The notes: generated from the letters alone by a model not told the origin. A stretch of DNA of 46,444 nucleotides from Patescibacteria group bacterium (GCA_049971355.1 JBMFLE010000001.1:1-46444), one strand, 5' to 3'; shown: positions 3,818 through 34,044, counted from the stretch's first letter. A program made the numbers and translations.

Positions 3818-4071
3818 TCGGAGTGGTGAGGTTCGCACCCACGATCTCCTGCTCCTTCACCCCGTTAGAAAAATATATGATGCATATATAGATTCTATCG
3901 GGGATGCCAGATTTGAACTGGCGACCTCTCGCTCCCAAAGCGAGCGCTCTAAACCAACTGAGCTAATCCCCGGCAACTCAATGTATAAAAGTTAAATTAT
4001 TCGTACTTTATACTTTGATAATTTCTAACGGGGCAAGAAGCAGGCGCCTTAAACTACTGGGCCACACTCCG
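3818..4071 (-). tRNA. Interrupted tRNA gene (5' part 4071->4034, 3' part 3853->3818) with a 180-nt anticodon-loop insertion; joined anticodon loop UUCUUGA (CUU, Lys-like)
   Basis: The joined halves give a 74-nt cloverleaf. It has a perfect 7-bp acceptor stem (CGGAGTG/CACTCCG), a D arm GCCC-AGTAGTTTA-AGGC, an anticodon stem CCTGC/GCAGG, a variable loop AGATC, a T arm GTGGG-TGCGAAC-CTCAC and A73. The insertion 3854-4033 is closed by a perfect 12-bp inverted repeat (3860-3871 / 4022-4033). Confidence 0.75.
3898..3972 (-). tRNA. tRNA-Pro(UGG): tRNA-Pro(UGG), nested inside the insertion of the interrupted tRNA
   Basis: CGGGGAT-TA-GCTC-AGTTGGTTTA-GAGC-G-CTCGC-TTTGGGA-GCGAG-AGGTC-GCCAG-TTCAAAT-CTGGC-ATCCCCG-A, 75 nt, with the C1-G72 pair typical of bacterial tRNA-Pro. 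Confidence 0.92.
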
Positions 4072-4087
4072 ACTTAAACACTAAAAT

Positions 4088-4115
4088 ATTTTAATATTTA
4101 TTTTATAAAAGTCAA
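4088..4115 (-). promoter_or_regulatory. Sigma70-like promoter for the tRNA cluster
   Basis: Minus strand reads TTGACT (4115->4110), N16, TAAAAT (4093->4088). The -10 box ends 16 nt upstream of position 1 of the interrupted tRNA. Confidence 0.55.
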
Positions 4116-4118
4116 TCA

Positions 4119-4141
4119 AATGCACGACCTAATAATACACT
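4119..4141 (-). promoter_or_regulatory. Conserved 23-nt box 3 nt upstream of a -35 hexamer (copy 1)
   Basis: AGTGTATTATTAGGTCGTGCATT on the minus strand, identical to 18961-18983 and at the same 3-nt distance from a TTGACT/TTGTCA -35. Confidence 0.45.
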
Positions 4142-4211
4142 TGACACTAAGGGGGCCAAACCAAAAATGAAGACGAAAATGAAAAAAATTTAATGACCGC
4201 TAAAATCAAGG

Positions 4212-4247
4212 GGTGGAATATGGAAGCGATCGCCGCGATATTCCACC
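4212..4247. repeat. Hairpin with GCGATCGC core
   Basis: GGTGGAATAT ... ATATTCCACC 10-bp stem enclosing the GCGATCGC palindrome. Confidence 0.5.
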
Positions 4248-4317
4248 TCTTTACCCCTACACCAATATATTAGCGCGGAGATAAATTGGGCTTACTTAGG
4301 TATCAATTATGTCAATT

Positions 4318-4338
4318 TCGGGAAGTCCGACCTCCCGA
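4318..4338. repeat. REP-like palindromic unit (TCGGGAGG-loop-CCTCCCGA family)
   Basis: tcgggaagtccgacctcccga. Related copies lie at 4573-4597, 23563-23587 and 23588-23610. Confidence 0.6.
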
Positions 4339-4407
4339 GACTTTATCAATAAATTGGAGTATATATTATATACCAATTTCTTTTATTCGCTATTTTTTGA
4401 GTTTTGG

Positions 4408-4441
4408 ACTATTTACCTATTCGGGCGAATAGGTAAATAGT
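4408..4441. repeat. 16-bp perfect hairpin
   Basis: ACTATTTACCTATTCG-GG-CGAATAGGTAAATAGT. Confidence 0.6.
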
Positions 4442-4572
4442 AAAATTTAAATATCAAAATCGTGCCAAATTTCAAAATTAATGATATAGATCAATTAATA
4501 GGGTCTGACCCGGAATCTCCATAGAAAAAGCAAAAGGAAGGTTTAAAATTAACTCCCTGAAACTACGTGGAA

Positions 4573-4597
4573 TTTCGGGGGGTCCGACCTCCCGAAA
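4573..4597. repeat. REP-like palindromic unit
   Basis: tttcggggggtccgacctcccgaaa. Confidence 0.6.
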
Positions 4598-4617
4598 AAT
4601 ACTTGAATGAAAATAAC

Positions 4618-5871
4618 CTAACAGCAATACAAATTTTCTGGCGGCTTATTTTCCGATATTTCGCCGAAAGGATTACCAAATTTTTGGATATTGGCAATCA
4701 TTTTTTTATTTTCTTCGGTTGATAAAACAGCGCCATTCAATTTATTTCTAATTTTTTTCATCAATTCTGGTAAATTAATTTTAACCGGACAATTTTCAAA
4801 ACAAGTCGAGCAAAGAGTGCAGGCATAAGCATTTGATTTTTTTGCTTGAAGTAAACTATCAGATAAAGCAGTAAAAATAATTCCCTTACTACCTAAATAT
4901 TTATCACCATAATTGCGACCTAATTGATGAAAGGCTGGACAAAAATTCAAACAAGCGCCACAATTTAAACAATATAATAATTCTTCAAAACCTTCTTTTA
5001 ATAACCGCGAACGACCATTATCAACTAAAATTAAATAAACTTCTTTTGCCCCTTGAGCGCCGATCACTAATCTATTTTGAATATCTGCTGTCTTTGATGG
5101 TCCAGAGATAATTGAAACATAAACCGGCCAATCCTGTCCAGCGCCCCAAATGGCTGAAGCTTTGACAATTTTCATCGCTGACTCAATATCTGGGGCCAAT
5201 TTTTCAACTCCAGAAATAATAATGTGCCTATCCGGCCAGCGTGAAACCAAAGAGATATTACCTTCGTTTTCTAATAAAATAATTCTGCCGTCAGCAGTAA
5301 TGACATTGGCTCCAGTAATACCAACTGTTGTTTCGGGAATTTTTTTTCTTAAATATTGACGGGCAAAATTGGCAATCACTTCTGCTTTTGGTTCAATTTT
5401 CTGACCAAATTTTTGATAAATTTTTTCAACAATCTTTTCTGGTGTTAAATGAAAGGCCGGAAAAACCGGATGTAAATCTTCCTCAGTCATCCACTGATTA
5501 ATCATGTCGCCCAAATCAGTCTCAATTAATTCTTTGCCTAAAAAAACTGATTTTAGATCAATCTCGTCAGCAATGTTTGATTTTGATTTTAAAATAACTC
5601 GGTCATCTTGAATCAATTTCTGAATAATCATTCGGGCATCAGCTGCATCTCTTGCCTCAAAAACTTTAATTTTATTTTTTTCTAAATTGGCAATGGTTTG
5701 TTTTTTAACTTCTTCTAAATTATCAATGGTAGCTTTTTTAATCTTATAAAGTTCCTCTCTCAATAATATCCGCTCTAAATCACTGGCTGTTTTTTCTCTT
5801 TTTTCTTTATATTCCAAAACCACCCGCCAAATATTTTCTTTGATTTGTGTGGATAAAAATTCTCTAATCAT
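4618..5871 (-). CDS. LutB-like iron-sulfur protein (LUD-type domain plus 2x[4Fe-4S] ferredoxin motifs)
   Basis: 417 aa. The C-terminal part has CLNCGACLNFCP and CTLCSTCFENCP motifs. The N-terminal 300 aa resemble the LUD/DUF162 fold of LutB/YkgF. Confidence 0.7.
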   Translation of the reverse strand: MIREFLSTQIKENIWRVVLEYKEKREKTASDLERILLREELYKIKKATIDNLEEVKKQTIANLEKNKIKVFEARDAADARMIIQKLIQDDRVILKSKSNIADEIDLKSVFLGKELIETDLGDMINQWMTEEDLHPVFPAFHLTPEKIVEKIYQKFGQKIEPKAEVIANFARQYLRKKIPETTVGITGANVITADGRIILLENEGNISLVSRWPDRHIIISGVEKLAPDIESAMKIVKASAIWGAGQDWPVYVSIISGPSKTADIQNRLVIGAQGAKEVYLILVDNGRSRLLKEGFEELLYCLNCGACLNFCPAFHQLGRNYGDKYLGSKGIIFTALSDSLLQAKKSNAYACTLCSTCFENCPVKINLPELMKKIRNKLNGAVLSTEENKKMIANIQKFGNPFGEISENKPPENLYCC

Positions 5872-5886
5872 ACTTGTTAGCAGTAA

Positions 5887-6606
5887 TTAGTAGCGATTTA
5901 ACAATTGTGATAATTCTTTAATTTCTATATCTTTAGTATTTTCTTTCAGGTGAAGATAACATAAAGGACAGGTGGTCACTAAAATTTTCACTCCAGTTTG
6001 TTCCGCTTGTTTTAATCTATCTTGGGCAATTTGATTGGCCAATTCCGGCTCATTAGATTTGACTCCGCCGCCTCCGCCACAGCAAAAAGAGTCAATTCGA
6101 TTTAATTTCATTTCTTTTATTTCGTATCCGAGCAATCTAATAATTTCTCGCGGTTCATCATAAACTCCCATTTGCCTGCCCAAATGACAAGGATCATGGT
6201 AACTGACCGCCTGGCGGTCAGAATTTTCAATTTTCAATTTCCAACTTTCATTTTTTTTGGCAATTGTTTGAGTGATGTGTTCAATTTGGATATCCCATTT
6301 TTCGCCCAAAATTTTCGGGTATTCTTTGCTAAAAATCATAAAACAGGCCGGACAATTAGTAATAATTTTAGAAACACTGTGTTCTTTAAAAATTTTTAAA
6401 TTCTTTTCAGCCAGTTTCTGAAAATCGTCAAAATAACCAGCCTTCAAAGCCGGCGAACCGCAACAAGCTTCAATCCCAGCCAATTCAATAAAATCAATTT
6501 TCAATTGGCGCAAAATCTGGCGATAATTATCCAACAAATCCTTGACGACAAATTTGGTTAGACAGCCGGGATAATATAAAATGTTGCCTCGGAATAATTT
6601 AAACAT
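5887..6606 (-). CDS. LutA/GlcF-like Fe-S oxidoreductase with two cysteine-rich (CCG) domains
   Basis: 239 aa with YYPGCL...CCGSPA and CPACF...CCGGGGG...TTCPLC patterns, immediately downstream of the LutB-like gene. Confidence 0.7.
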   Translation of the reverse strand: MFKLFRGNILYYPGCLTKFVVKDLLDNYRQILRQLKIDFIELAGIEACCGSPALKAGYFDDFQKLAEKNLKIFKEHSVSKIITNCPACFMIFSKEYPKILGEKWDIQIEHITQTIAKKNESWKLKIENSDRQAVSYHDPCHLGRQMGVYDEPREIIRLLGYEIKEMKLNRIDSFCCGGGGGVKSNEPELANQIAQDRLKQAEQTGVKILVTTCPLCYLHLKENTKDIEIKELSQLLNRY

Positions 6607-6658
6607 AATACAAATCTTTTTTATTCACAAATTTGTATTGATTTGTACATTCGTTGAT

Positions 6659-7330
6659 CTAAATCCTCCCTATCAACATCAAAACACCTAAAACCATTAA
6701 GAATAATCCGGCCAGTAATCTCATCCAACGGCGGTATTTCATCCGCCAAGTCTCTAACTTTGCGGAGGAACTGCCAAAATAAACCACGGCCAAAATTATT
6801 AGCAATGGCAGAACAAAAATTAAATTATATAAAAGAAGATATAAAATTCCTTGCCAGCGAGTACATTTTTCTGCCATTAGACAAAGCACGCCTAAATAAA
6901 TCCCGCCGGTACAAGGCAACTCAAAGGCGGCAACCAAAAAACCCAGAACAATCGCCCCGGGGATAGAAGCCCGATGAATATATTTTTCTAAAAGCGGCTT
7001 TTTTGACTCAGGAATAGCTAAACTAATTCCTTTGCCATACCAAAAAAAATCTTTCAAATTAACCAAACCCAAAATAATCAATAAAACAGCAGCAACTTTT
7101 GAAATAATTAAAGTCAGATGCAATGAGGTCAGAATTTTCAAAAGCCCCAGGCCGGCTAAAAAATAAACAATAAAAACAGTAAAAATATAAATCAAGCCGA
7201 CTCGCCAGACTCTTTTCGACGAACCAATCAGCGATAAATAGCCCAATAAAAAAATTAAAACAGCAAAAGCACAGGGATTGATAGAGTCAATAATTGCGGC
7301 GCCAATAATGGCCGGGATAGTTAAATTCAT
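6659..7330 (-). CDS. CcdA/DsbD-family thiol-disulfide electron transporter
   Basis: 223 aa with about 6 TM segments and conserved membrane cysteines in INPCAF and ELPCTGG. Confidence 0.75.
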   Translation of the reverse strand: MNLTIPAIIGAAIIDSINPCAFAVLIFLLGYLSLIGSSKRVWRVGLIYIFTVFIVYFLAGLGLLKILTSLHLTLIISKVAAVLLIILGLVNLKDFFWYGKGISLAIPESKKPLLEKYIHRASIPGAIVLGFLVAAFELPCTGGIYLGVLCLMAEKCTRWQGILYLLLYNLIFVLPLLIILAVVYFGSSSAKLETWRMKYRRWMRLLAGLFLMVLGVLMLIGRI

Positions 7331-7373
7331 AAAGGCTACGAAATACGAATTGATTACGAATATACTAAATAAA

Positions 7374-7910
7374 TTAAATCTTTTTCTTGCGAAAAATAAA
7401 TTTTATTAATAAAAAAACGATAGCTAAAACTATTAAACCAATGGCAATCCAGCCAATCATAACTTGTTTTGAACTTCTTTTACTGTCAAAATTTTGATTA
7501 TTTTGTTCTGATTGAATTTTCTCAATCGGCGAGGGACATTTCTGATTGAGACAGCGCAAAACTTCATTTCTAATTTGCGAACCAATAAAATCATTATAAC
7601 CAACGAATGATTTCTCACCAATGTAAATAACCGGCACCTGAATCTCAGTCAAACTTAATCCGTAAGCTCGAGCCATGGCTAAATAAATAAACCGATTATT
7701 TTGATTATAAAAAACTTCTAAAGGAAAAACATCTAATCCAGCGTACTGTTTCTTTAGTTGCTCTAAAAAGATTTCCGCTCGGGCACAATGCGGACAACCC
7801 TGACCATAGAAAAAATAAAGTCCAACCTGGTTTTGTTGAGCCAGAACAGGACTAAAAATTATTAGCAAAAAACCAACAACTAATAGTAATAAATTTAGAT
7901 GCCTTTGCAT
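7374..7910 (-). CDS. Secreted, membrane-anchored thioredoxin-fold protein (CPHC active site)
   Basis: 178 aa with an N-terminal signal/anchor, GQGCPHCARAE and a C-terminal TM helix, adjacent to the CcdA-like gene. Confidence 0.6.
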   Translation of the reverse strand: MQRHLNLLLLVVGFLLIIFSPVLAQQNQVGLYFFYGQGCPHCARAEIFLEQLKKQYAGLDVFPLEVFYNQNNRFIYLAMARAYGLSLTEIQVPVIYIGEKSFVGYNDFIGSQIRNEVLRCLNQKCPSPIEKIQSEQNNQNFDSKRSSKQVMIGWIAIGLIVLAIVFLLIKFIFRKKKI

Positions 7911-7980
7911 ATCTTTAATATTTTAAAGAATCTATATAAAAAGTCAAAATGCGGGCTGACAATTTTTATCGGGCCCGCAT

Positions 7981-8445
7981 TTATAGTTTTAAAATCGTCG
8001 GAAGACCAAAATAAAAGCAGATAGTAATAACCATTAAGGCTAACCAATAAACATTAGGCACGCCTAGCCACCAACGGCGATACCACCAAATTTCTAAATT
8101 GTCGCTCCGGAACTTTTTGATGCCGAAGGCCGGATTAAAAACGAACCAGAAAAAATCTTCCAACGTAACCAATGTGAAAAAAAATCCGACAATCAACATT
8201 TCTTTGCGCCAATTCCAGTGGGTAAAAAAGCAGGGTAAATGAATAATCATTAGCAGAAAAATCCACATCATCAAATGGTAACCGGTTAAGGGTCGACCGC
8301 CTAGTAGTTTGGATATCAATTTATTCGTACAACGCCAAGTCGGCAATTTTCCTGCCCAGCCGTTTTCGCCTTCGATCTGGATCTCCCACACAGCCAAAAC
8401 TATGGCTACTACTAAAGTATAAATCAAAAAGACTATAAAGAGCAC
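7981..8445 (-). CDS. Hypothetical Trp-rich integral membrane protein
   Basis: 154-aa ORF with four hydrophobic segments and no recognisable family. Confidence 0.45.
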   Translation of the reverse strand: MLFIVFLIYTLVVAIVLAVWEIQIEGENGWAGKLPTWRCTNKLISKLLGGRPLTGYHLMMWIFLLMIIHLPCFFTHWNWRKEMLIVGFFFTLVTLEDFFWFVFNPAFGIKKFRSDNLEIWWYRRWWLGVPNVYWLALMVITICFYFGLPTILKL

Positions 8446-8528
8446 TTTATCCTCCTTTCTTTTATTTATCTTAAGTATAACAAATTTGTCAAAAAGTCAA
8501 GTCTTTTCCCTGATTATTTTTTGGTTAA

Positions 8529-9842
8529 TCAGGCCCCTAAACTTTTTTGATTTATGATATTTTCAATATTGTATACTCCCATTTTTTCAATTTCAACAAA
8601 GCCTTGCATCGCCGCTTCGGCAAAAGCGCCAACTCGCCAATAATCAAAAAACCATTCGTTGGTATAATGTGGATTTTCTTGACAAATAGCCGCTCCTTTT
8701 TGTAAAAGCCAATCGCGATTAAAATCTTCCTGAGAGCCAATGGTTGGTGCCAAAATTATCGGAATTCCTAAGGCGCTATAAAATACCAATTCGCTCGGTT
8801 TTGTCCATAAAACATCAGTCACTCTTAAAGCCTGATTAAATTTGTCAAAATACTCATTAATTTCTGGGGCCCAAAGAATTTCAATATTCTGACCCAAATA
8901 ATTTTCTAAACCAAAGTGTTTAATCCAATAGAGAAAATGTTTTTTAACTTTTTCTTTAATCCCTGCAGAAAAAATAGTTTTAATTTCTCTGTTTTTAATA
9001 TTATTTAATAAACTTTTAAGAATGACTACCCCCATTTCTTTTTGGGCACCAGCTCCACCAATCGAAAACATTATAGTTAAAGGATGATTAGAATTTTCTG
9101 GTATTTTGCCTAAATATTTTTTAATCAAGACATCATATTGTTGACGATATTCTTTTTTTGGATCTAAATTAATTAAACGATTAGCTAGATCATTTTTAAT
9201 AATTTCCCTATTTGGGCCAATATTTTCTATGGGCAAGGGGTAACCGGTGACAAAGATATTTTCTTTTTTAACACCATAGAGTCGAAGACGATTAGCTGTT
9301 CTCCGGTTTGGGGTAAAGTATTTAATTTTACTTTCTTTAGGATTAAATGGCGCCCAGGTTCTGGCAATATCAGCATCGCAAACCACACAATAAATATCAT
9401 TTGGATAACCCCAAAATTCTGCCATAAAAGCTGGAGTAAAAAAAGTTGAAATAATTGGCAAAGGATTATTTTTTAGGCTCTCTATTAAATGTTTACCCCA
9501 CCCCTTTTTAATTAAAGAACAAATTTGACGTAGCTGAAAACTTGGTTTTGATAAATCCCTTTTTGGATAAAAACTCCAAATTTTTTGAAAACGATTAAAA
9601 AAGCCAAAAATGGCTTCGCCAATCAGAGGAATCCGTTTAAAATCAGAAATAAATTCATAAAATTTGCGGCTTGTTTCCCAAATCCGGCGATCATTTTTTG
9701 GAATTCCAGCGTAATCGTTGGCATTAATCACTTTTCCATTCGGCGCCAAATGTCTTAATGGATAAGCGGTCCGCTGATGGCCATAGCCCATATTAACTGA
9801 AATTACCCAAGCTTTTTGCTGAGATTGATTATTTTCGATCAT
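8529..9842 (-). CDS. Putative GT-B glycosyltransferase (UgtP/MGDG-synthase/MurG-like)
   Basis: 437 aa. The N-terminal VNMGYGHQRTAYPL resembles the G-x-GH motif of UgtP-type enzymes, and FSIGGAGAQKE resembles the nucleotide-sugar loop. Confidence 0.5.
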   Translation of the reverse strand: MIENNQSQQKAWVISVNMGYGHQRTAYPLRHLAPNGKVINANDYAGIPKNDRRIWETSRKFYEFISDFKRIPLIGEAIFGFFNRFQKIWSFYPKRDLSKPSFQLRQICSLIKKGWGKHLIESLKNNPLPIISTFFTPAFMAEFWGYPNDIYCVVCDADIARTWAPFNPKESKIKYFTPNRRTANRLRLYGVKKENIFVTGYPLPIENIGPNREIIKNDLANRLINLDPKKEYRQQYDVLIKKYLGKIPENSNHPLTIMFSIGGAGAQKEMGVVILKSLLNNIKNREIKTIFSAGIKEKVKKHFLYWIKHFGLENYLGQNIEILWAPEINEYFDKFNQALRVTDVLWTKPSELVFYSALGIPIILAPTIGSQEDFNRDWLLQKGAAICQENPHYTNEWFFDYWRVGAFAEAAMQGFVEIEKMGVYNIENIINQKSLGA

Positions 9843-9972
9843 ACTATAAAATTAACAAATTTAAAATGATTGAGCAAGACAATTAATCCATTCTTTAATC
9901 TTATTCACTAATTTTAGAAGTGGATTACCTCGTAAATTTATTGAGGGAACAGGCACCGGCCTTGATAAGGAT

Positions 9973-10154
9973 GTCATTGCGAGCCCTGACGAAGTCAGGG
10001 CGAAGCAATCTCTGTCTCCCTTTGTCATTGCGAGGAGCGGAGCGACGAAGCAATCTCAATCGTTATGGGATTGCTTCGGTCGTCCGCCTAAGGGCGGACT
10101 CCCTTGCAATGACGGACGAAAGAGATTGCTTCGGGCTAAAGCCCTGGCCATGAC
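9973..10154. repeat. Structured GC-rich repeat, outer copy, with a second copy (10024-10113) nested in its central loop
   Basis: Modules gtcattgcgag / hairpin / cgaagcaatctc...gagattgcttcg / hairpin / ..catgac. The inner copy sits in the loop of the outer central stem. Confidence 0.7.
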
Positions 10155-10181
10155 GGAAAAAAAGGAGCGAGTTAATAGTTT

Positions 10182-10506
10182 ATTTGTACTATCTAACCAA
10201 TTCGGTAACGAAATGATTAGATGTTAAATTAATTTCCTCAATTTGACCTTGATTAGTTTTAGTTGAGGGGTCTCGACCTTTTAAAGTCTTCTAATTCTAA
10301 TTTTAGTAGTTTTTCAGTAGGTATCAAGTAGTTAATTCCTTCATGTTTTCTCTCTTGATTGTAGTAACACATAAATAAACTGGTGAAGTTTGAGATTGGA
10401 ACAGCCGTCGGAGACCGGGACTCCGATTATGTTATGGAACTGGCGGAGGTCGGGACTCCAATTACATTCTACCAAACCGTTACCAAACTGGTTAGCAATT
10501 ACAGTT
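10182..10506 (-). mobile_element. Internally deleted IS relic bounded by about 28-nt terminal inverted repeats, retaining the C-terminal tail of an rve (DDE) transposase
   Basis: The left TIR is 10182-10209 and the right TIR is 10479-10506 (21/28). Minus-strand translation of about 10259-10400 gives ..FMCYYNQERKHEGINYLIPTEKLLKLE..*, matching the conserved YN..R.H..L...TP end of integrase-core transposases. The core TIR starts TG and ends CA. Confidence 0.55.
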
Positions 10507-10525
10507 TATTATATTTTGTGAAGCC

Positions 10526-10553
10526 AAAGACCTGTGAATATTCACAGGTCTTT
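10526..10553 (-). terminator. 13-bp hairpin just 3' of tRNA-Phe (possible terminator)
   Basis: AAAGACCTGTGAA-TA-TTCACAGGTCTTT. The following U-tract is weak. Confidence 0.35.
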
Positions 10554-10557
10554 GATA

Positions 10558-10629
10558 TGCCAGGGGGCAGAATCGAACTGCCGACGCCAGGATTTTCAGT
10601 CCTGCGCTCTACCACTGAGCTACCCTGGC
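10558..10629 (-). tRNA. tRNA-Phe(GAA): tRNA-Phe(GAA)
   Basis: GCCAGGG-TA-GCTC-AGTGGTA-GAGC-G-CAGGA-CTGAAAA-TCCTG-GCGTC-GGCAG-TTCGATT-CTGCC-CCCTGGC-A. Confidence 0.92.
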
Positions 10630-10741
10630 AAAAGAGAAGTTGATTGACACCGGTCATTACCCCAAAAAACGCTGAATTGAAAGTTAATAATTTCGCAACA
10701 ACTCGAAAATTTTAAAAGCGGTGACTATCCTCTTGTTTATT

Positions 10742-10815
10742 TGGTGGGCGACCAAGGAATCGAACCCTGTTTTCTTCCGTGTAAAGGAAGTGTTTTACCA
10801 TTAAACTAGTCGCCC
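10742..10815 (-). tRNA. tRNA-Val(UAC): tRNA-Val(UAC), CCA encoded
   Basis: GGGCGAC-TA-GTTT-AATGGTA-AAAC-A-CTTCC-TTTACAC-GGAAG-AAAA-CAGGG-TTCGATT-CCTTG-GTCGCCC-ACCA. Confidence 0.92.
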
Positions 10816-10827: not shown

Positions 10828-10898
10828 TGGACCCGCGGGGAGTCGCACCCCGGACTCCTCCATGCCATAGAGGTGTTTTACTGCTAGACTACGGGCCC
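10828..10898 (-). tRNA. tRNA-Ala(GGC): tRNA-Ala(GGC)
   Basis: The acceptor GGGCCCG/CGGGTCC gives the G3:U70 Ala identity pair and the anticodon loop is ATGGCAT. The D loop AGCAGTA and T loop TGCGACT are unusual. Confidence 0.88.
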
Positions 10899-11961: not shown

Positions 11962-12045
11962 TGCCGGGAGGGAGATTCGCACTCCCACGACCCAAACGGG
12001 TCACAGGTCCTCAGCCTGTTGTGTCTACTATTCCACCACCCCGGC
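11962..12045 (-). tRNA. tRNA-Leu(GAG): tRNA-Leu(GAG), class II with long variable arm
   Basis: 84 nt with anticodon loop CTGAGGA, a variable arm GACCCGTTTGGGTCG, D loop AATAGTAGA and T loop TGCGAAT. Confidence 0.9.
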
Positions 12046-16173: not shown

Positions 16174-17781
16174 TTATTCGTATTTAGTAGCCATTTGTTT
16201 TTGCAAAAATTTAATCGCTTCTTCCTTTTCTTTAATCCGACCGCTCAATTGTTCTTCTCGCAAAGCAGCCAAAAGCTGACCAATCTTTGGCCCTGGCTTT
16301 AAGTTAAACTCTTCCATTATCTCATAACCATTTAAAAGTGGTTTAGGTAATTCTTTTTTTGTCGCTGATAAACTTTTTAGCCGCTCAATTCTTTCAATCA
16401 TCTGATAAAAATTAGAAAAGTCTGGTTTGCCGTCAGGCGGAATAGTGGCTGAAATATCAACAAAAGCTAATTTTAATAAATTCTCGCCTGGCATATTTTG
16501 GTTGAAAAAATATTTTTCAATTGTTGATGGCCTCATTTTTGAAATATCGCCCTGAACCAACAACATATGATGTTGAACCAACCAAGCAACTTTTTCTGAA
16601 TCAACACCTAAATTTTCTGGACTTGATAATTTTAATCTTTCGCAGATTTGTTTTGTCATTTCTGCACCAACTATATCATGCTCATCAAAGCGGATGCGAT
16701 CGGTTTTATCTTTTTCCGGTGTCTTAATTGTCGCCGGTTTACCAAGATCATGAAATAAAACAGCCATAATTAATTCAGTTGATGGTCTTTCACTGCCAAA
16801 TTGTTTTTTGAATTCATTTGAAGACAATTTGTCTAAAGCTAATTTTGTATGAGTCCAAACGTCTCCCTCTGAATGAAAATTTTCCGGCTGAGGACAATTT
16901 TTTAATTTTAGAACTTCTGGTATTAATTCACGAAATGCGCCACTCTGATCATATAAATCAAAAGCTTTGGTCGGAGAATAATAAAATGATTTTAAAAATT
17001 CTTTAGCTATCACTTCATAAGACACAACTCTATTTTCTAAAATCTCCGGTTCAGCATAAACCGTTTCGCCAACCATTTCTACTTCACGCCGAATGTCATT
17101 TAGGTGACTAATATTTTTAAAAATTGCTCTCCGAGTTTTATCCTCAATTGAAAAATCAAGTTGACAAGCAAAACGAATTGCTCTTAACATTCTTGAATAA
17201 TCTTCTTTAAATCTCTCCTCTGGTTTGCCAACCGCTCGAATTACTTTTTTCTCAACATCTCGACGGCCATTAAAAGGATCAACCAATTCGTATTTTCCTG
17301 AATTAAAAATTTTAAGAGCCATGGCATTAATAGTAAAATCGCGTCGAGATAAATCTTCTTTAACTGAAAGTTTTGGATCCGATTGAACTTCAAAATCTCG
17401 ATAGCCGCCGGTACCAAAAGCATGTTCTCTCCTCGGCAAAGCAAAATCAATCGCTTCATAGGCCCATTCTTTAGGCGTAAATTTTAAAACACCAAAAGTT
17501 TTACCAACTAAATTAACTTGACCAAATTTAGACAGAAACTCTTCCAAATCTTTACCTTCAACATTCCGAATAACAAAATCGAAGTCTTTAATCTCCCTTT
17601 TTAAAATAAAATCTCTAACCGCGCCGCCAACCAGATAAATTTCAGCCTTATTAAATTTTTCTCTTAACTCTTTAAGACAAAGTTCTTCCAAAAATTTAAG
17701 TTTTTGGAAATTTGTTTCCACTGTTTCCAGTTTTTTTTCGTTATTAGATTTCATAAAATTGTGTTCAAACGTTTCTCTCAT
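16174..17781 (-). CDS. cca: CCA-adding tRNA nucleotidyltransferase with HD domain
   Basis: 535 aa with LVGGAVRDFIL..DFDFV (pol-beta NTase head) and an HD motif FHDLGKP. Its ATG overlaps the upstream stop (ATGA). Eight of the 11 tRNA genes here lack an encoded CCA. Confidence 0.85.
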   Translation of the reverse strand: MRETFEHNFMKSNNEKKLETVETNFQKLKFLEELCLKELREKFNKAEIYLVGGAVRDFILKREIKDFDFVIRNVEGKDLEEFLSKFGQVNLVGKTFGVLKFTPKEWAYEAIDFALPRREHAFGTGGYRDFEVQSDPKLSVKEDLSRRDFTINAMALKIFNSGKYELVDPFNGRRDVEKKVIRAVGKPEERFKEDYSRMLRAIRFACQLDFSIEDKTRRAIFKNISHLNDIRREVEMVGETVYAEPEILENRVVSYEVIAKEFLKSFYYSPTKAFDLYDQSGAFRELIPEVLKLKNCPQPENFHSEGDVWTHTKLALDKLSSNEFKKQFGSERPSTELIMAVLFHDLGKPATIKTPEKDKTDRIRFDEHDIVGAEMTKQICERLKLSSPENLGVDSEKVAWLVQHHMLLVQGDISKMRPSTIEKYFFNQNMPGENLLKLAFVDISATIPPDGKPDFSNFYQMIERIERLKSLSATKKELPKPLLNGYEIMEEFNLKPGPKIGQLLAALREEQLSGRIKEKEEAIKFLQKQMATKYE

Positions 17782-27210: not shown

Positions 27211-27222
27211 TTTTTTGGTTTT

Positions 27223-27687
27223 ATGATAAATTTAAAGAGATATTATAATTCTATTGTTGAAAGAATACGTTTTTTACCTTTTGCTAAAGATCACCCCTGG
27301 ATTCGGCAGTTCTTTAAATTTTCTGTTGTTGGCGGTACTTGCATGATTCTTGATTTTTTAATTTATATTTTTTTAACCAGATTATTTTCTTTTTGGCAAA
27401 ATCATTTAGCTTGGGCTAATTTTTTATCTATCTGTTTATCTGCTACAGTTAATTTTGTTTGGAATAAAAAGTGGACCTTTAGAGACAAAGATCAAAAAAT
27501 TTTCTGGCAATATATTAAATTTTGGGTTGTTGTTATTGGTGGCCTTATTTTATATCAATTGATTTTTATTTTTTCAGTTCAAAATTTAAAACTTTATGAT
27601 TTGTTAAGTAAAGCAATTGCCGCAATTATTGTTTGGATATTACGATTTATTTTTAATAAATTCTGGACATTCCGAGCCCCATATTAA
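27223..27687 (+). CDS. GtrA-family membrane protein
   Basis: FFKFSVVGGTCMILDFLIY.. and NFVWNKKWTF are typical of GtrA. I place the start at Met15 because the first 42 nt of the ORF are repeat family C. Confidence 0.75.
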   Translation: MINLKRYYNSIVERIRFLPFAKDHPWIRQFFKFSVVGGTCMILDFLIYIFLTRLFSFWQNHLAWANFLSICLSATVNFVWNKKWTFRDKDQKIFWQYIKFWVVVIGGLILYQLIFIFSVQNLKLYDLLSKAIAAIIVWILRFIFNKFWTFRAPY

Positions 27688-27722
27688 TCTTTAAAATAAT
27701 TTCGAAGTGAAATAAACCTATT

Positions 27723-28178
27723 ATGATTAAAGATGTTCAACTTAAACAATTAAATTTAAATTTTGATGATCGCGGATTTTTAGTGGAGGTCTTAAAAAAA
27801 ACAGATCCAATTTTTAAAGAGATTAAACAGACAACTTATACTGAAACGTATCCGGGAGTAATCAAAGCTTTTCATTGGCATAAAAGACAATGGGATTTTT
27901 GGTTTATTATTAAAGGTATGGCCCAGGTAGTTCTTTATGATTTAAGAGAAGATTCGCCCACTAAAGGTGAGACAAATGTCTTTTATTTAGGAGAAAAAAA
28001 TTTAGCTGTTTTAGCCATTCCTCCAGGCGTGGCACACGGCTATCGAGTTTTAGGTAATCAGCCAATCGGCTTGCTTTATCAGACCACCGAAATTTATAAT
28101 CCAGAGAATCCCGATGAAGGAAGAATTTCTTTTGATGATAAAAAAATAGGATTTGATTGGACGACCAGACCCCGCTAA
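27723..28178 (+). CDS. rfbC: dTDP-4-dehydrorhamnose 3,5-epimerase-like cupin
   Basis: 151 aa with FHWHKRQWDFWF..GVAHGY..Y.PENPDEGRISFDD. It is shorter than classical RmlC. Confidence 0.8.
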   Translation: MIKDVQLKQLNLNFDDRGFLVEVLKKTDPIFKEIKQTTYTETYPGVIKAFHWHKRQWDFWFIIKGMAQVVLYDLREDSPTKGETNVFYLGEKNLAVLAIPPGVAHGYRVLGNQPIGLLYQTTEIYNPENPDEGRISFDDKKIGFDWTTRPR

Positions 28179-28207
28179 TCGTAGTAGCCATTGGTGATAG
28201 AATTAGT

Positions 28208-29071
28208 ATGATTAGTGATATTAAAATTCTAATTCTTGGTGCTAAAGGAATGCTTGGCCATGATTTAATGGCAGTTTTTGAAGATCATCAGCCAACTGGT
28301 TGGGATATTAATGAAATTGATATTACCAATAAAGACGATGTTTTTAAAAAAATAGGCACTCTGAACCCTGAAATAATTATTAATGCCGCCGCTTATACTG
28401 ATGTAGATGGGGCAGAAAAAAATAAAGAATTGGCCATGAGGGTTAATAGAGAAGCGGTTGGTTATTTAGCCGAGATTTGCGTTCAAAATAATATCATTTT
28501 AGTTCACTACAGCACTGACTATGTTTTTCACGGTAACAAGAAAGAAGGATATAAAGAAGAAGATATTCCGGAAGATCCGGTTAATTTTTACGGCCAATCA
28601 AAACTTCTCGGTGAAAAAGAGATTAAAGATTGTAAATTGAAAATTGAAAATTTTAAGTATTATTTGATTCGCACTGCTTGGCTTTTTGGGCCGAAATCTA
28701 ATCCCCATCAGCATAAAAATTTTGTGGACACAATTTTAAAACTAGCTCAAGAAAGAAAGGAAATTAAAGTAGTGGATGATCAATTCGGTTCGCCAACTTA
28801 TACTTATGATTTGGCCCGAGCAACTAAAGAGTTAATAGAAAAAAACTATCCGTCTGGTATTTATCATTTAACTAATTCAGGAATGACTAATTGGTATCAA
28901 TTTGCTAAAAAAATTGTTAAATTATCAGGCCTTAAAACTAAGATTTTGCCTTGTTCAAGTAAAGAATTTCTGCGACCAGCCAAAAGACCAAAGTATTCTT
29001 TTCTAGTTAATACTAAATTTCCAAAAATGAGATTTTGGCAAGAGGCCTTGAGTGATTATTTAAATCTTTAA
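28208..29071 (+). CDS. rfbD: dTDP-4-dehydrorhamnose reductase
   Basis: ILILGAKGMLG Rossmann start and STDYVFHG..YGQSKLLGE (YxxxK). I place the start at MISDIK. Confidence 0.85.
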   Translation: MISDIKILILGAKGMLGHDLMAVFEDHQPTGWDINEIDITNKDDVFKKIGTLNPEIIINAAAYTDVDGAEKNKELAMRVNREAVGYLAEICVQNNIILVHYSTDYVFHGNKKEGYKEEDIPEDPVNFYGQSKLLGEKEIKDCKLKIENFKYYLIRTAWLFGPKSNPHQHKNFVDTILKLAQERKEIKVVDDQFGSPTYTYDLARATKELIEKNYPSGIYHLTNSGMTNWYQFAKKIVKLSGLKTKILPCSSKEFLRPAKRPKYSFLVNTKFPKMRFWQEALSDYLNL

Positions 29072-29085
29072 TCTAAACAAATTTT

Positions 29086-30093
29086 ATGAAGTTATTAATT
29101 ACAGGGGGAGCTGGGTTTATCGGCAGTAATTTCATCAGCTATATTTTAAAGAAATATCCAAATGACCGGATTATTAATTTGGATAAGTTGACTTATTGCG
29201 GAAATTTGGGAAATTTAAGAGCTGTTGAAAAAAATCCTTGCTACAAATTTATTAAAGGTGATATCTGTGATAATAAATTAGTTGATAATTTAATTTCTCA
29301 AGAAAGGCCAGATGCAATTATAAATTTTGCTGCCCAAACACATGTCGATCGTTCTATTTTAGATCCTTTTGAGTTTGTCAGAACAAATATTTTAGGAGTT
29401 CATATTCTGTTAGAAGCAGTAAAAAAATACAGAGTTAAAAAATATGTTCAAATAAGTACTGACGAAGTTTATGGTAGTATTACCAGAGGAAAATTTAGAG
29501 AAACAGATAACTTAAATCCTTCTAGCCCATATGCGGCAACCAAAGCAAGTGCTGATTTACTCGCTCTTTCTTATTTTAAAACTTTTAATTTACCGGTTTT
29601 GATCACCCGTTCTTCTAATAATTATGGTCCTTATCAATATCCAGAAAAATTAATACCTTTATTTATTACTAATTTATTGGAGAACAAAAAAGTTCCTCTT
29701 TATGGAACAGGTAGAAATGTGCGTGACTGGCTTTATGTTTTGGACAATTGTTCGGCAATAGATTTGGTTTTGCGTAAAGGAAAAATTGGTGAAATTTATA
29801 ATATTGGCGGTGACCGCGAAAAAGAAAATATTGAAATTGCAAAAGTTATTTTAAAAATATTGGGAAAAACTGAAGAGTGGATTGAATATGTTAAAGATCG
29901 ACCGGCCCATGATTTTCGTTACGCTCTCGATAGCTCAAAAATCAAAAAATTAGGCTGGCGACCAAAATATAAATTTGAAGAGGCAATAGAAAAAACAATT
30001 AAATGGTATAAAGAAAATCAAGATTGGTGGAAAAAGATTAAAAGCGGAGAATATTTGAAATATTATAAAAAGCAGTATTTAAAAAATCTATGA
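29086..30093 (+). CDS. rfbB: dTDP-glucose 4,6-dehydratase
   Basis: 335 aa with ITGGAGFIGSNF, STDEVYG and YAATKASAD motifs. Confidence 0.9.
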   Translation: MKLLITGGAGFIGSNFISYILKKYPNDRIINLDKLTYCGNLGNLRAVEKNPCYKFIKGDICDNKLVDNLISQERPDAIINFAAQTHVDRSILDPFEFVRTNILGVHILLEAVKKYRVKKYVQISTDEVYGSITRGKFRETDNLNPSSPYAATKASADLLALSYFKTFNLPVLITRSSNNYGPYQYPEKLIPLFITNLLENKKVPLYGTGRNVRDWLYVLDNCSAIDLVLRKGKIGEIYNIGGDREKENIEIAKVILKILGKTEEWIEYVKDRPAHDFRYALDSSKIKKLGWRPKYKFEEAIEKTIKWYKENQDWWKKIKSGEYLKYYKKQYLKNL

Positions 30094-30812
30094 AAGGCGT
30101 TATTTTAGCTGGTGGCTTTGGAACTCGATTATTACCCTGCACAAAGGTCACTAATAAACATTGTTTACCAGTCTATAACAAACCAATGATTTACTATCCT
30201 TTAGAAACATTGGTGGGGGCCGGCTTAAAAGAGATTCTAATAGTTACTGGCGGCAATAGTCCTGGTGATTTTCTTAAACTTCTCGGGAATGGCAAGGAAT
30301 TTGGCTTAAAAGAAATTCATTATACTTATCAAGAGGGAGCAGGCGGAATTGCTGAGGCCCTGGGTTTGGCTGAAGATTTTGCCGATAGAGGAAAAGTTGC
30401 CGTTATTCTTGGTGATAATATTTTTGAAGACGATTTTACTCAGTCAGTGCAGGATTTCGAAAGACAAAATTGGGGGGCTAAACTATTTTTGAAAGAAGTG
30501 CCTGACCCTCAACGTTTTGGTGCGGCTGAGATAAAAGACGGAAAGTTAATCAACATCGAAGAAAAACCCAAGAAGCCAAAATCAAAATATGCGGTCACCG
30601 GTTTATATATGTATGATAGCCAAGTTTGGGATGTGATAAAAACATTAAAGCCCTCCCAGAGAGGAGAGCTAGAAATCACTGATGTCAATAATTTTTATAT
30701 TGAGAAAGGGATTGTTACTTATGAGATTTTAAAAGGTTTTTGGTCAGATGCCGGTACATTTGAATCCCTATTAAATGCAGCAAATTTTTTAAGAAGTAAA
30801 AAAATAACTTAA
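30090..30812 (+). CDS. rfbA: Glucose-1-phosphate thymidylyltransferase (short form)
   Basis: MKGVILAGGFGTRLLPCT..NKPMIYYPL. Its ATG overlaps the rfbB stop (ATGA). Confidence 0.85.
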   Translation: MKGVILAGGFGTRLLPCTKVTNKHCLPVYNKPMIYYPLETLVGAGLKEILIVTGGNSPGDFLKLLGNGKEFGLKEIHYTYQEGAGGIAEALGLAEDFADRGKVAVILGDNIFEDDFTQSVQDFERQNWGAKLFLKEVPDPQRFGAAEIKDGKLINIEEKPKKPKSKYAVTGLYMYDSQVWDVIKTLKPSQRGELEITDVNNFYIEKGIVTYEILKGFWSDAGTFESLLNAANFLRSKKIT

Positions 30813-32245
30813 TGAATTTGCGCTTGCCAGATTCCTTCTTGATCGTTAATCTCCCCCCAAATATAAAGATATCGAGGATTTTCTCTGAACCAGATTTTTT
30901 TAATTTTATTACCAGTCAATAATTTATAAATATTTCTTGTCCCGGAACCGTCAATTTCCATAGCCCAAATTTCATCTTTACTGACGAAGATTAAATATGT
31001 ATTATCAGGATGCCAGATGACCTGATTCAAAATTTGACCACTGCGGTTAATTAATTCTTCTATTATTTTTGGTTGACCCTCTGGATTTTGTGTTATGTTA
31101 GCTAAAATTATTTCAAAGTCATTATAGTAAAGCATTTTCTTGTCGCCCGGTTGAGTTAAAATTTCATTAGCTTGATTTTTTAAAATTATTGGATTGTTTT
31201 TTTGATTAAGATCAATAATAAAGAGGTCCTGGGCGGCTTTAAGGATAATTAAATTATTATCAATTGAAAGGGGATAGAATTTAAATTGATAGGCAGGTAA
31301 ATTTAGATAAGTAGATTCTGATTCAAGATTTCCTAAAACTTGATTTAACTTAGTCTTTTTAAGACAAATGCCATTTGGTGTGCTTCCAAGTAAAAACCAA
31401 TTATTTTCTTTGACTAACCAATCTTGGATAATAAAATTTTTGAATTTTAAATTTAGGACCAACTTAATTTGTTTGGTTTTAGGGTTGAAGGAGTAAATAA
31501 TATCAGCAGATTGAACATAAAATAAATTTTCATCATAGACCACTTTATTTGGATTTTTAAAAAAATTGTTAAGATTGATGATTATTTGCGGTGTCGACGA
31601 ATTAATAATAAAAATTTTTGATTTAGAGGTGTAGATTATAAAGTAGGGACCGGCTTCTTCAATTTTTAGAATTCGACCGCTAACTGTCGCCAAATGATCT
31701 TGAAAAATTTCGGTTAAAGATATTAATTTAATTTGGGAATTTTGTGAAGAAGGATCATAGATTGAATAAATTAAATTTTTATCTTTAGTTAGCGGATAAA
31801 TGAAATCAATTTTTTCTTTAATTAATAATTTTAACCCTGGCTGCTTCAGAAAGAGAAAAATTTTGTTAGTTTCAGTGGTTTTTTCGGCCCGAATTTCTAA
31901 TTTTTTCTGCCAAGAATAATAGCCAGGTTTATAAACAGTAATTTGATAATTATCAGGCAGTAAATTGGGGATTACGGTTGGCGTAGTGTCTTGTATCTTT
32001 ATCAACCCTAAAAATTTTTTATAAAATAGTAATTGCCGGTACCATTTAGGAGTTAAAGGTTGGTTATTGATAATAACTCGGGCACCAGGGGGTATGGATT
32101 TAATAAAAAAATTGCCTGTTTTTGTTAAACGGCGATTTCTAAAATCATAACGATATCCCTGACCGTAAAGGATGAGAGCCGGGGTCAGAGTGACAAAAAT
32201 CAGGGTAAAGAATATAATTAAAATGAGACGATAACGAAATGGCAT
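30809..32245 (-). CDS. Membrane-anchored PEGA-domain protein with beta-propeller-like C-terminal region
   Basis: 478 aa with an N-terminal TM, a PEGA-like IKSIPPGARVIINN segment and a repetitive beta-rich remainder. Confidence 0.6.
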   Translation of the reverse strand: MPFRYRLILIIFFTLIFVTLTPALILYGQGYRYDFRNRRLTKTGNFFIKSIPPGARVIINNQPLTPKWYRQLLFYKKFLGLIKIQDTTPTVIPNLLPDNYQITVYKPGYYSWQKKLEIRAEKTTETNKIFLFLKQPGLKLLIKEKIDFIYPLTKDKNLIYSIYDPSSQNSQIKLISLTEIFQDHLATVSGRILKIEEAGPYFIIYTSKSKIFIINSSTPQIIINLNNFFKNPNKVVYDENLFYVQSADIIYSFNPKTKQIKLVLNLKFKNFIIQDWLVKENNWFLLGSTPNGICLKKTKLNQVLGNLESESTYLNLPAYQFKFYPLSIDNNLIILKAAQDLFIIDLNQKNNPIILKNQANEILTQPGDKKMLYYNDFEIILANITQNPEGQPKIIEELINRSGQILNQVIWHPDNTYLIFVSKDEIWAMEIDGSGTRNIYKLLTGNKIKKIWFRENPRYLYIWGEINDQEGIWQAQIH

Positions 32246-32288
32246 AAACTGCTATAAATATATAAAAATAAAGCGAACAAAGTGAGCT

Positions 32289-33542
32289 ATGAAATTTATA
32301 ATTGAAGGCGGTTACCCTTTAAAGGGTGAAATTGAAGTAATGGGCATGAAGAATGCAGCTACACCGATTTTAGTGGCTACGCTTTTAACATCCGAGCCCT
32401 GCCTGTTGAAAAATGTTCCTAAAATTTCTGATGTTGGGAATATGCTTGAAATTCTAGAAAGTTTAGGCGCAGAAATAAATTATTTAGATGAACATTCAAT
32501 TCAAATTTCCAATCAAAATATTAGTTTGCATCGTTTAGACAAAGATGCGGTCTGCAAAATGCGCTCTTCAATTCTTTTTATGGGGCCGCTTCTCTCTCGT
32601 TTTGGCCAAATTGAATTACCAGAGCCGGGCGGTTGTATTATCGGAAATCGACCGATTGATACCCATCTTTACGCCTTAGAGCAATTAGGGGCAAAGATTG
32701 AAAGGGAAAATGGTTTTTATGGAGTGAAGGCTAATGGTTTAAAGGGCACTGTTATTATTTTACCAGAATTTTCTGTGACGGCAACAGAGAATGCACTAAT
32801 GGCAGCGGTATTGGCCAAAGGGCGAACAATTATTAAACTAGCGGCTGCTGAGCCCCATGTCCAAGATTTATGTAGTTTTCTAAATAAAATGGGAGCGAAA
32901 ATTAGCGGCATTGGAACTCATACTTTAATCATTGACGGAGTTAAAAAATTGAAAGGCGCAGAGCATACAATTATTCCAGACCAAATTGAAATTGGAACTT
33001 TTGCTGTTGCTGCTGCGGTAAGTAGGGGAGAGGTAAAAATAAAAAATATTATCCCCGAGCATTTGGAAATTATTTGTTTAAAATTAAAACAAATTGGCGT
33101 CAAATTTGATTTAGACGAGAATTCTTTGTACATTCATCCGTCGACTAATCTCAGGGCTTTTCGATTACAAACAATGCCTTATCCTGGCTTTCCGACTGAT
33201 TTACAGGCGCCCTTCGGTGTCTTAGCCACTCAATGCCAAGGCACGAGCCTGATTCAGGACCCTCTTTTTGAGGGAAGGATGGGTTATGTTCAAGAATTAA
33301 TAAAAATGGGGGCCAATGCCATTGTCGCCGACCCTCATCGAGTAGTCATTACCGGTCCGACCCCTCTTTATGGTCAAGAAATTAAAAGTTTTGATTTACG
33401 AGCAGGCGCAACCTTAATTATTGCTGGACTGATTGCCCAGGGCCAAACTATTATTAATCAGGCCGAAGTAGTTGACCGAGGTTATGAAAAAATAGAGGAA
33501 AGGTTATCTAAATTAGGAGCAAAAATTAAAAGGGTAGAATAG
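32289..33542 (+). CDS. murA: UDP-N-acetylglucosamine 1-carboxyvinyltransferase
   Basis: 417 aa with GMKNAATPILVATLL, the active-site GGCIIGNRPID loop and FPTDLQAPF. Confidence 0.95.
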   Translation: MKFIIEGGYPLKGEIEVMGMKNAATPILVATLLTSEPCLLKNVPKISDVGNMLEILESLGAEINYLDEHSIQISNQNISLHRLDKDAVCKMRSSILFMGPLLSRFGQIELPEPGGCIIGNRPIDTHLYALEQLGAKIERENGFYGVKANGLKGTVIILPEFSVTATENALMAAVLAKGRTIIKLAAAEPHVQDLCSFLNKMGAKISGIGTHTLIIDGVKKLKGAEHTIIPDQIEIGTFAVAAAVSRGEVKIKNIIPEHLEIICLKLKQIGVKFDLDENSLYIHPSTNLRAFRLQTMPYPGFPTDLQAPFGVLATQCQGTSLIQDPLFEGRMGYVQELIKMGANAIVADPHRVVITGPTPLYGQEIKSFDLRAGATLIIAGLIAQGQTIINQAEVVDRGYEKIEERLSKLGAKIKRVE

Positions 33543-33544
33543 AA

Positions 33545-33970
33545 TATTAATTTTCGGACCAAAATTGACCGATTTTCGAACTCTTGATCTAAAAACTGAA
33601 TAATTTTTTCTCTAAATTTTTGGTATCTATCTCTAATTGTAGTATAACTTAAATTTAGAAAATTTGTCAAGCATCCATTTTTAGACAGATTGTCTCTCCG
33701 CATTCTTTAGCCAACCCCCTTTTACTTTTAAAAGGAGCTGTCTGATTAACGGCCATAGCGATGCTTGATTTTTTTCCCAGTCCCTGATCAACAGTCAGCT
33801 GACCCACTATTTTCAAAAGAGCGTCTTTCTCTCTTTTCAGCCCGGACAATTCCAGTAAGGTTCCCGAGTTCTGACCAGAACGGCTTAAATAGCCATGGAT
33901 AATTCTGGGTTGAACTCCGTATTTTTGGGCTAAACCCCCACACCAAGTTTTGGTGTGGGGTAAATTTTAG
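33545..33970 (-). pseudogene. Decayed IS3-family OrfA (COG2963-type) remnant plus other transposase-like debris
   Basis: One minus frame reads ..GGLAQKYGVQPRIIHGYLS..LKREKDALLKIVGQLTVDQGLGKKS, the HTH and leucine-zipper region of IS3 OrfA. There is no proper start, the sequence is split over frames, and no OrfB is present. Confidence 0.55.
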
Positions 33971-33971
33971 G

Positions 33972-34044
33972 GGTGGCATACGGGATTTGCACCCGTGCTG
34001 AAAGTTCCACAGACTTCCGTGCTAACTACTACACCAATGCCACC
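33972..34044 (-). tRNA. tRNA-His(GUG): tRNA-His(GUG) with encoded G-1
   Basis: G(-1)-GTGGCAT-TG-GTGT-AGTAGTTA-GCAC-G-GAAGT-CTGTGGA-ACTTT-CAGC-ACGGG-TGCAAAT-CCCGT-ATGCCAC-C. Confidence 0.9.

Follow-up and report, generated by a model that had tools for sequence, protein, structure and literature searches.

Four of the eleven tRNA genes on a 46,444-nt contig from a Patescibacteria genome depart from the standard tRNA elbow in the same two places: position 18 of the D loop is A, and position 55 of the T loop is G. In the standard elbow, G18 slides between T-loop bases 57 and 58 and touches U55 or pseudouridine 55 (Psi55). The contig (C1 of assembly G000) is referred to below as the window, meaning this stretch at its full length. 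We consider it probable, with good but incomplete assurance, that the A18/G55 genes encode working tRNAs with a second way of building the elbow. This reading is based on the sequences themselves, on the strict coupling of the two changes, on repeated switching between the two states on conserved tRNA backbones, and on signs of function in the genes. From the strict covariation of positions 18 and 55, we infer that A18 and G55 make contact in three dimensions.

Four tRNA genes carry A18 together with G55

ARAGORN called 10 tRNA genes in the window, every one on the minus strand, and an eleventh, interrupted gene lies on the same strand at 3818-4071. Loop registers were determined by Infernal alignment to RF00005 (gathering threshold 29 bits). 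For tRNA-His(GUG) (33972-34044, with G-1 at 34044; D loop AGTAGTTA, T loop TGCAAAT, C73), alignment of positions 34043-33972 placed A at the model's G18 and U-G-C at 54-56, with a score of 59.2 bits. The same bases were found for tRNA-Ala(GGC) (10828-10898, minus strand; D loop AGCAGTA, T loop TGCGACT, G3:U70, CCA not encoded), aligned from 10898 to 10828 at 49.6 bits. The class II tRNA-Leu(GAG) (11962-12045, minus strand; D loop GAATAGTAGA, T loop TGCGAAT, A73, CCA not encoded) was absent from the default whole-window RF00005 listing at the gathering threshold, yet scored 48.7 bits, with A18 and G55, when its region (12045-11962) was searched alone. All three genes were called by ARAGORN and scored above the gathering threshold, and all three lack the G18 and U55 that are the conserved elbow bases of RF00005. 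The register of the interrupted gene is secure because tRNA-Pro(CGG) on contig C15 has exactly the same D arm and variable loop.

The A18/G19 and U54/G55/C56 registers that an earlier reading of the window, made from the sequence only, had assigned to these four tRNAs are thus upheld, by Infernal for three and by homology for the interrupted gene; the Infernal alignments rule out a wrong loop register. The six tRNAs that it had called canonical do have GG in the D loop and TTC in the T loop, and its other factual statements were likewise borne out. Retained in the A18/G55 tRNAs are G19:C56, U54, A58, a purine at 57, and U33 within a 7-nt anticodon loop.

ARAGORN found 42 tRNAs in the whole G000 genome, covering all 20 amino acids, and the interrupted gene brings the number to 43. 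Seven of the 43 are A18/G55: the Ala(GGC), Leu(GAG), His and interrupted genes of the window, tRNA-Cys(GCA) on C5, tRNA-Pro(CGG) on C15 and tRNA-Tyr(GUA) on C17. Their T loops read TGCGACT, TGCGAAT, TGCAAAT, TGCAATT or TGCGAAC. The coupling claimed for the window, 4/4 versus 0/6, holds and becomes 7/7 versus 0/36 genome-wide, as every G55 gene has A18, no other gene does, and mixed genes number zero. For both cysteine and tyrosine, the sole tRNA gene found in the assembly is A18/G55. The A18/G55 tRNAs score 10-20 bits under their neighbours in standard models, and may be under-annotated. Low-threshold ARAGORN calls ('Pyl' and '???') had poor folds and were taken as false positives.

Positions 18 and 55 change together across relatives

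Six tRNA sets, amounting to 259 tRNAs, were compared: those of G000, of G001 and G002 from the same family, of the truB-bearing G034 and G038 from another family, and of G005 (most of the set). The comparison yielded 14 A18/G55, 232 G18/U55 and 13 G18/C55 tRNAs, and 0 mixed. A crude rule typed tRNA-Gly(GCC) of G001 as G18/G55; ortholog alignment gave A18.

A search for elbow patterns across the order, with a built-in reversed control, was performed on 41 genomes. The A18/G55 pattern produced 81 matches versus 27 in the control. About 51 were true A18/G55 tRNAs, or 45 by a strict automatic filter, with the identities Cys, His, Tyr, Gly(GCC), Pro, Ala(GGC), Leu(GAG), Trp and Met. The G18+G55 pattern produced 21 matches versus 21 in the control, and no tRNA in register was found among them in the 41 genomes. 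An apparent G18+G55 tRNA in G021 is a normal tRNA-Ser(GGA), with the sequence GTGCAAG lying in its variable arm. In a phylum sample of 301 genomes, the excess of A18/G55 matches over the control was ~0.37 per genome, indicating that the swap is widespread but thinner outside the order. G000 ranks among the A18/G55-richest genomes sampled. A search for tRNAs beside nusA across 80 related loci gave nothing useful.

Both elbow states occur on the same tRNA backbones

To follow single genes, tRNA-Cys and tRNA-His were surveyed in 55 genomes of the order with a pattern independent of elbow state. For tRNA-Cys, 44 genes were found in 42 of the 55 genomes, comprising 21 A18/G55, 22 G18/U55, 0 G18/G55 and 1 A18/U55. 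For tRNA-His, 14 genes were A18/G55 and 13 were G18/U55, with 0 mixed. The absence of mixed genes among the 259 tRNAs, the lack of any real G18+G55 tRNA in the 41 genomes and these two-state surveys all support the earlier proposal that positions 18 and 55 covary as one contact.

The sole mixed gene among the 71 Cys and His genes is the A18/U55 tRNA-Cys at G012:C22:7589-7639. It is a second tRNA-Cys in G012, which also carries an A18/G55 one, and its anticodon stem contains an A-C mismatch. This copy may be a duplicate in decay, or it may capture the switch midway.

Both elbow states occur inside three families (f1, f4 and f9) and two genera (g17 and g22). Between ortholog pairs (His, Cys, Tyr, Gly(GCC), Ala(GGC) and Pro(UGG)), the main differences were at positions 18, 55 and often 57, with otherwise compensated stem changes. 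The acceptor, D and T stems of tRNA-His are identical between G001 and G002, and the D arms of tRNA-Cys from G000 and G034 differ at position 18 only. Like behaviour was seen for Ala(GGC) between G000 and G038, Gly(GCC) between G002 and G038, and Tyr between G000 and G034; the Ala(GGC) gene of G038 has the same backbone as the window gene, with G18/U55. For tRNA-Leu(GAG), G006 holds a near-identical A18/G55 ortholog of the window gene. Because both states are found on near-identical backbones within families and genera, the 18/55 pair has switched in place many times. Switching in both directions is suggested by tRNA-His, for which A18/G55 predominates on this backbone across families and G002 is canonical; on this comparison, the order has probably seen switches both ways.

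Signs of function

The identity elements of the A18/G55 tRNAs are in place: G-1/C73 in His, G3:U70 in Ala, U73 in Cys, a long variable arm and A73 in Leu and Tyr, and C1:G72 with A73 in Pro. CCA is not encoded in the Ala, Leu, His and Cys genes, so these tRNAs must undergo 3' processing and CCA addition. The elbow is recognised by RNase P, RNase Z and the CC- and A-adding enzymes (review, PMC4810234). A CCA-adding-type nucleotidyltransferase, which tRNAs without encoded CCA need, is encoded in the window at 16174-17781 (minus strand) and has PolyA_pol head, HD and tRNA_NucTran2_2 domains. Across the Cys orthologs, 98.4% of stem cells were paired, and 5/8 pairs changed on both sides. The A18/G55 genes, including those for the apparently essential Cys and Tyr tRNAs, look functional by these sequence features.

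It is scarcely credible that the A18/G55 genes are decaying pseudogenes that share two changes by chance. Their scores in the window are low (48.7-59.2 bits versus 59.7-72.3 for the other tRNAs), the D stem of Ala(GGC) has a C-A mismatch, and one window gene is interrupted, all of which would fit decay. Coupling is nevertheless perfect over dozens of genes, the stem changes are compensatory, and the one decay-like copy among the 71 Cys and His genes is the redundant, mismatched gene of G012. The hallmarks of a tRNA pseudogene were found among the A18/G55 genes in the interrupted gene at 3818-4071 alone; the G012 copy possibly shows them too. Since two of the genes are the sole Cys and Tyr tRNAs found and the identity elements are intact, the A18/G55 genes are not pseudogenes. 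The concern, raised with the sequence-only reading, that they might be pseudogenes with canonical paralogues is thus answered for the group, with two caveats: the interrupted gene is probably disabled, and tRNA-His has a canonical second copy.

The genes also appear to be at home in the genome. G000 is a metagenome-assembled genome (MAG) of 662 kb in 77 contigs, with G+C of ~35% and estimates of 97.5% completeness and 7.8% contamination. The housekeeping genes of the window are nusA, rplS, gmk, secDF and those for an H+-pyrophosphatase, a MurA/EPSP-type enzyme and the CCA-adding-type nucleotidyltransferase. The nearest relatives of its NusA come from MAGs labelled Patescibacteria group, Falkowbacteria and Uhrbacteria, and the source organism is a bacterium of the Candidate Phyla Radiation. 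Among the A18/G55 genes lie canonical tRNAs as well as nusA, rplS, gmk and secDF. The A18/G55 genes are dispersed over contigs C1, C5, C15 and C17, with nothing resembling a phage-type accessory array. Gene order is conserved in the family, as Ala(GGC)-Val-Phe and Arg(UCU)-His in G001 and as Pro(UGG)-Gly(UCC) in G002.

This placement bears on the idea that the A18/G55 genes are foreign accessory tRNAs, from a phage, an island or contaminating DNA, and lie outside the organism's own working set. The estimated contamination, the position of tRNA-His near insertion sequence (IS) remnants, a GIY-YIG gene and a tyrosine recombinase gene, and the second, canonical tRNA-His on C2 all favour it. Yet the genes lie among canonical tRNAs and housekeeping genes in an order that matches G001 and G002, their His and Cys orthologs are spread over many families of the order, and no Cys or Tyr gene other than the A18/G55 ones was found. 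Moreover, of the two His genes it is the canonical one on C2 whose type is missing from G001 and G002. A foreign origin therefore seems very unlikely. A18/G55 tRNA-His as a foreign copy in an IS-flanked islet was rejected, as the Arg(UCU)-His neighbourhood is common to G001 and the type is widespread in the order. The canonical tRNA-His (C2:28144-28219) has a D stem of the 'GAAC' type, which families f6, f9 and f16 also have but G001 and G002 lack; the gene may have been acquired or may come from contaminating DNA.

A possible structure for the A18/G55 elbow

A published analysis of the T loop describes it as a U·A handle followed by a UNR or GNR U-turn, and the contacts to its intercalating nucleotide as a 'G-clamp' or 'more rarely a U-clamp', with tRNAPhe as a U-clamp case (Jaeger et al. 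2009, PMC2615604). The T loops of the A18/G55 tRNAs, U54-G55-C56-R57-A58, match the stem-closed G-clamp signature U-G-N-R-A. In the proposed elbow, A18 would take the intercalating place of G18 between bases 57 and 58 and would be held there by G55, which would replace U55 as the first base of the U-turn. The rare U-clamp T loop of tRNA would in this way become the common G-clamp T loop, in which the clamp G hydrogen-bonds to the inserted base. As G19:C56, the outer platform, and the pair U54-A58 are both kept, RNase P, the CCA-adding enzyme and the ribosome should still work. On this reading, the two states would both be fit, but a tRNA with only one of the changes would not, and lineages would therefore jump between the states by paired changes, repeatedly.

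Known systems offer partial likenesses. The G-clamp T loops of 23S rRNA, the thiamine pyrophosphate (TPP) riboswitch and the AMP aptamer share U-G-N-R-A, with a purine from elsewhere in the RNA intercalated between positions 4 and 5; these loops sit in non-tRNA RNAs, and the likeness is one of sequence motif only (PMC2615604). Compared with the canonical bacterial elbow (G18-Psi55, G19:C56 and T54-A58; RF00005), the A18/G55 tRNAs share the full cloverleaf, G19:C56, U54, A58, purine 57, U8, A14 and A21, as well as normal anticodon loops and identity elements, and differ at positions 18 and 55, always jointly. In an engineered E. coli tRNA, U18-G55 restored an elbow-dependent TrmJ activity that had been lost in the single mutants (PMC4551947). 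There, too, a paired change rebuilds the elbow, as is proposed for A18/G55, although the tRNA was a laboratory construct with U18 instead of A18 and was assayed with one enzyme only. A functional natural tRNA without U55 exists in tRNAPyl, which has G55 in Desulfitobacterium hafniense (PMC1851642). However, tRNAPyl lacks both G18G19 and T54-Psi55-C56 and has A56, a 5-nt D loop and an altered core, whereas the A18/G55 tRNAs keep G19:C56 and normal loop sizes.

Modification enzymes and the cause of the swap

Psi55 is described as 'universally conserved' (review, PMC4810234). No TruB_N match was found in G000, and tblastn with two TruB proteins from the same order gave nothing better than an E-value of 4. 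The three other genomes of the family also had no TruB_N match, and truB was found in 12/41 genomes of the order and not found in 29/41. There was no GIDA/TrmFO match in G000 and no clear TrmA, the one TrmA-like match being marginal and partial. As TruB was not found in a 97.5%-complete genome, Psi55 is probably on no G000 tRNA, and the G000 T loop is probably U-U-C without modification; U54 and U55 are probably likewise unmodified in the members of the order in which truB was not found. The sequence-only reading had named TruB and TrmH-type enzymes as acting on U55 and G18. For the former, neither G000 nor its family showed a gene; for the latter, G000 has two small SpoU-type methyltransferases, which are not assignable to TrmH versus RlmB. 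Its statement that the A18/G55 subset could not carry Psi55 is true, but nearly moot where no truB was found in the genome or the family and Psi55 is likely missing from all G000 tRNAs.

Loss of TruB as a requirement for freeing position 55 was considered and rejected. Across the 41 genomes, the mean number of A18/G55 tRNAs per genome was 1.08 with truB and 1.10 where none was found, and at least one A18/G55 tRNA occurred in 5/12 and 18/29 genomes, respectively. G006 has truB and five A18/G55 tRNAs. Both groups also have C55 tRNAs. This second non-U55 class, with G18 kept, is common across the order (Arg(UCU), Phe, Thr(UGU), Trp, Val and others), reaching up to five or more per genome whether truB was found or not. 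In the window it is represented by tRNA-Arg(UCU) (34528-34599, minus strand), for which GG with C55 (T loop TCCGATT) had been noted correctly; C55 recurs in the Arg(UCU) of many genomes of the order.

Several points weigh against the view that A18/G55 tRNAs are working tRNAs with a second elbow of roughly equal merit. Near-neutrality of the two states is an assumption. For tRNA-His there is a second, canonical copy on C2, and other isoacceptors might in principle stand in for Ala(GGC), Leu(GAG) and Pro(CGG). The 7.8% contamination is that of a MAG in 77 contigs, and of the four window genes, one is probably disabled. In Cys (21/21), His (13/14) and Tyr, A57 joins G55, so that the change may involve more than two positions there; G57 is kept in Gly, Ala, Leu and most Pro. 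Finally, the swap recurs in particular tRNAs (Cys, His, Tyr, Gly(GCC) and Pro), and G34 is over-represented among A18/G55 tRNAs (12/14 versus 82/245 of the rest in the six sets), both of which could hint at selection.

These last two patterns are what might be expected if the swap were an adaptation, by which A18/G55 either escapes a reader of U55, G18 or the T loop (a modification enzyme such as TruB or TrmH, or a tRNA-directed nuclease acting in phage-host conflict) or stabilises T loops that lack 5-methyluridine 54 and Psi55. The same identities are hit repeatedly across both order and phylum, and G000 has no detectable TruB or TrmFO and no clear TrmA. The G34 excess is not an independent test, because the genes are related. 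The equal A18/G55 counts with and without truB, and the five such tRNAs in the truB-bearing G006, argue against adaptation, as does the window, where no nuclease or defence gene is linked to the A18/G55 tRNAs. The alternation of states among close relatives is also easier to explain by two states of about equal merit than by an advantage in one direction. Adaptation in this broad sense is accordingly unlikely in our estimation. The narrower proposal that A18/G55 is favoured in particular tRNAs by hiding from a factor that reads U55 or G18, such as a nuclease directed at the T loop or elbow, a phage factor or a modification-dependent quality control, is a little less likely again. Two interchangeable elbow states in working tRNAs remain the preferred reading.

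The interrupted tRNA-Pro gene and neighbouring features

The interrupted gene is split in its anticodon loop, on the minus strand throughout. Its 5' part (4034-4071) holds the acceptor 5' strand, the D arm with CAGTAGTTTAA, the 5' anticodon stem and the start of the loop; its 3' part (3818-3859) holds the 3' anticodon stem, the variable loop AGATC, the T arm with TGCGAAC, the acceptor 3' strand and A73. Between them lies a 174-bp insert (3860-4033), which is bounded by a 12-bp inverted repeat, CCCCGTTAGAAA / TTTCTAACGGGG, and contains a complete canonical tRNA-Pro(UGG) at 3898-3972. Both parts match the uninterrupted A18/G55 tRNA-Pro(UGG) of G002, which likewise lies directly upstream of tRNA-Gly(UCC). 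The split arrangement was found in none of the 54 other genomes of the order. By manual reading, 3818-4071 folds into a single long helix, almost unbroken, from which the inner tRNA branches off. A conserved intron was rejected, given its absence from the 54 other genomes and a fold that, again by manual reading, is not a bulge-helix-bulge.

Joining the two parts cannot restore the UGG anticodon, and the interrupted gene is probably disabled. The disruption is probably recent, because a compensated A4:U69 pair is kept between the parts. The arrangement suggests that a resident A18/G55 tRNA-Pro(UGG) was inactivated and that a newly arrived canonical gene took over its function; alternatively, the insert could be an unusual processed intron.

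A 13-14-nt word, CCC(C)GTTAGAAAT(T), recurs upstream of promoter-like sequences, at 4020-4033 and 46327-46340 in the window and at C12:9641-9654; a copy of this word forms one arm of the inverted repeat that flanks the inserted tRNA-Pro. The C12 copy is followed by TTGACT, 17 nt and TAGAAT. The word may be a regulatory or UP-like element.

The adjacent tRNA-Gly(UCC) (3744-3814, minus strand) has a canonical elbow. The C33 reported for it earlier is correct, and its anticodon loop, CCUCCAA, has both C32 and C33; five relatives carry U33. No tRNA-Gly(GCC) was found in the G000 assembly, and the gene is present in G001 and G002. According to Lustig et al. 1993, C32 in Gly(UCC) reportedly lets the anticodon read all four GGN codons. 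C32 may therefore compensate for a lost Gly(GCC).

Canonical tRNA-Phe(GAA) and tRNA-Val(UAC) (10558-10815, minus strand) share a cluster with Ala(GGC), and G001 has these genes in the same order. Canonical tRNA-Ala(CGC) and tRNA-Arg(CCU) (37711-38233, minus strand) are paired as in G001 and G002. The GIY-YIG nuclease gene (34209-34514, minus strand) lies between tRNA-Arg(UCU) and tRNA-His, which in G001 are 8 nt apart. The tyrosine recombinase gene near tRNA-His is at 34732-35667, and a transposase helix-turn-helix fragment is at 36326-36637. Elsewhere in G000, tRNA-Ser(GCU) is duplicated (C3 and C7).

Implications

Textbooks treat the G18-Psi55 contact as universal, and it has been reported to be needed for rapid translocation (Pan et al. 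2006, cited in PMC4810234). No description of a natural A18/G55 tRNA class was found in the open literature. New here are the single-gene surveys of the two states, the lack of a link to truB, the association with A57, the one mixed-state redundant copy, and the apparent replacement event at 3818-4071. A natural, strictly covarying substitute in apparently essential tRNAs suggests that the elbow contact can be rebuilt with other bases. Two states on the same backbone in close relatives provide a system ready for testing the role of the 18/55 pair. Should the swap after all serve to hide tRNAs from a reading factor, it would mark a molecular conflict rather than a neutral variant. In A18/G55 tRNAs, both Psi55 and 2'-O-methylguanosine at position 18 are chemically impossible, and such molecules could be scaffolds for tRNAs unseen by TruB or TrmH. 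For the Patescibacteria themselves, these tRNAs add to the picture of reduced tRNA modification.

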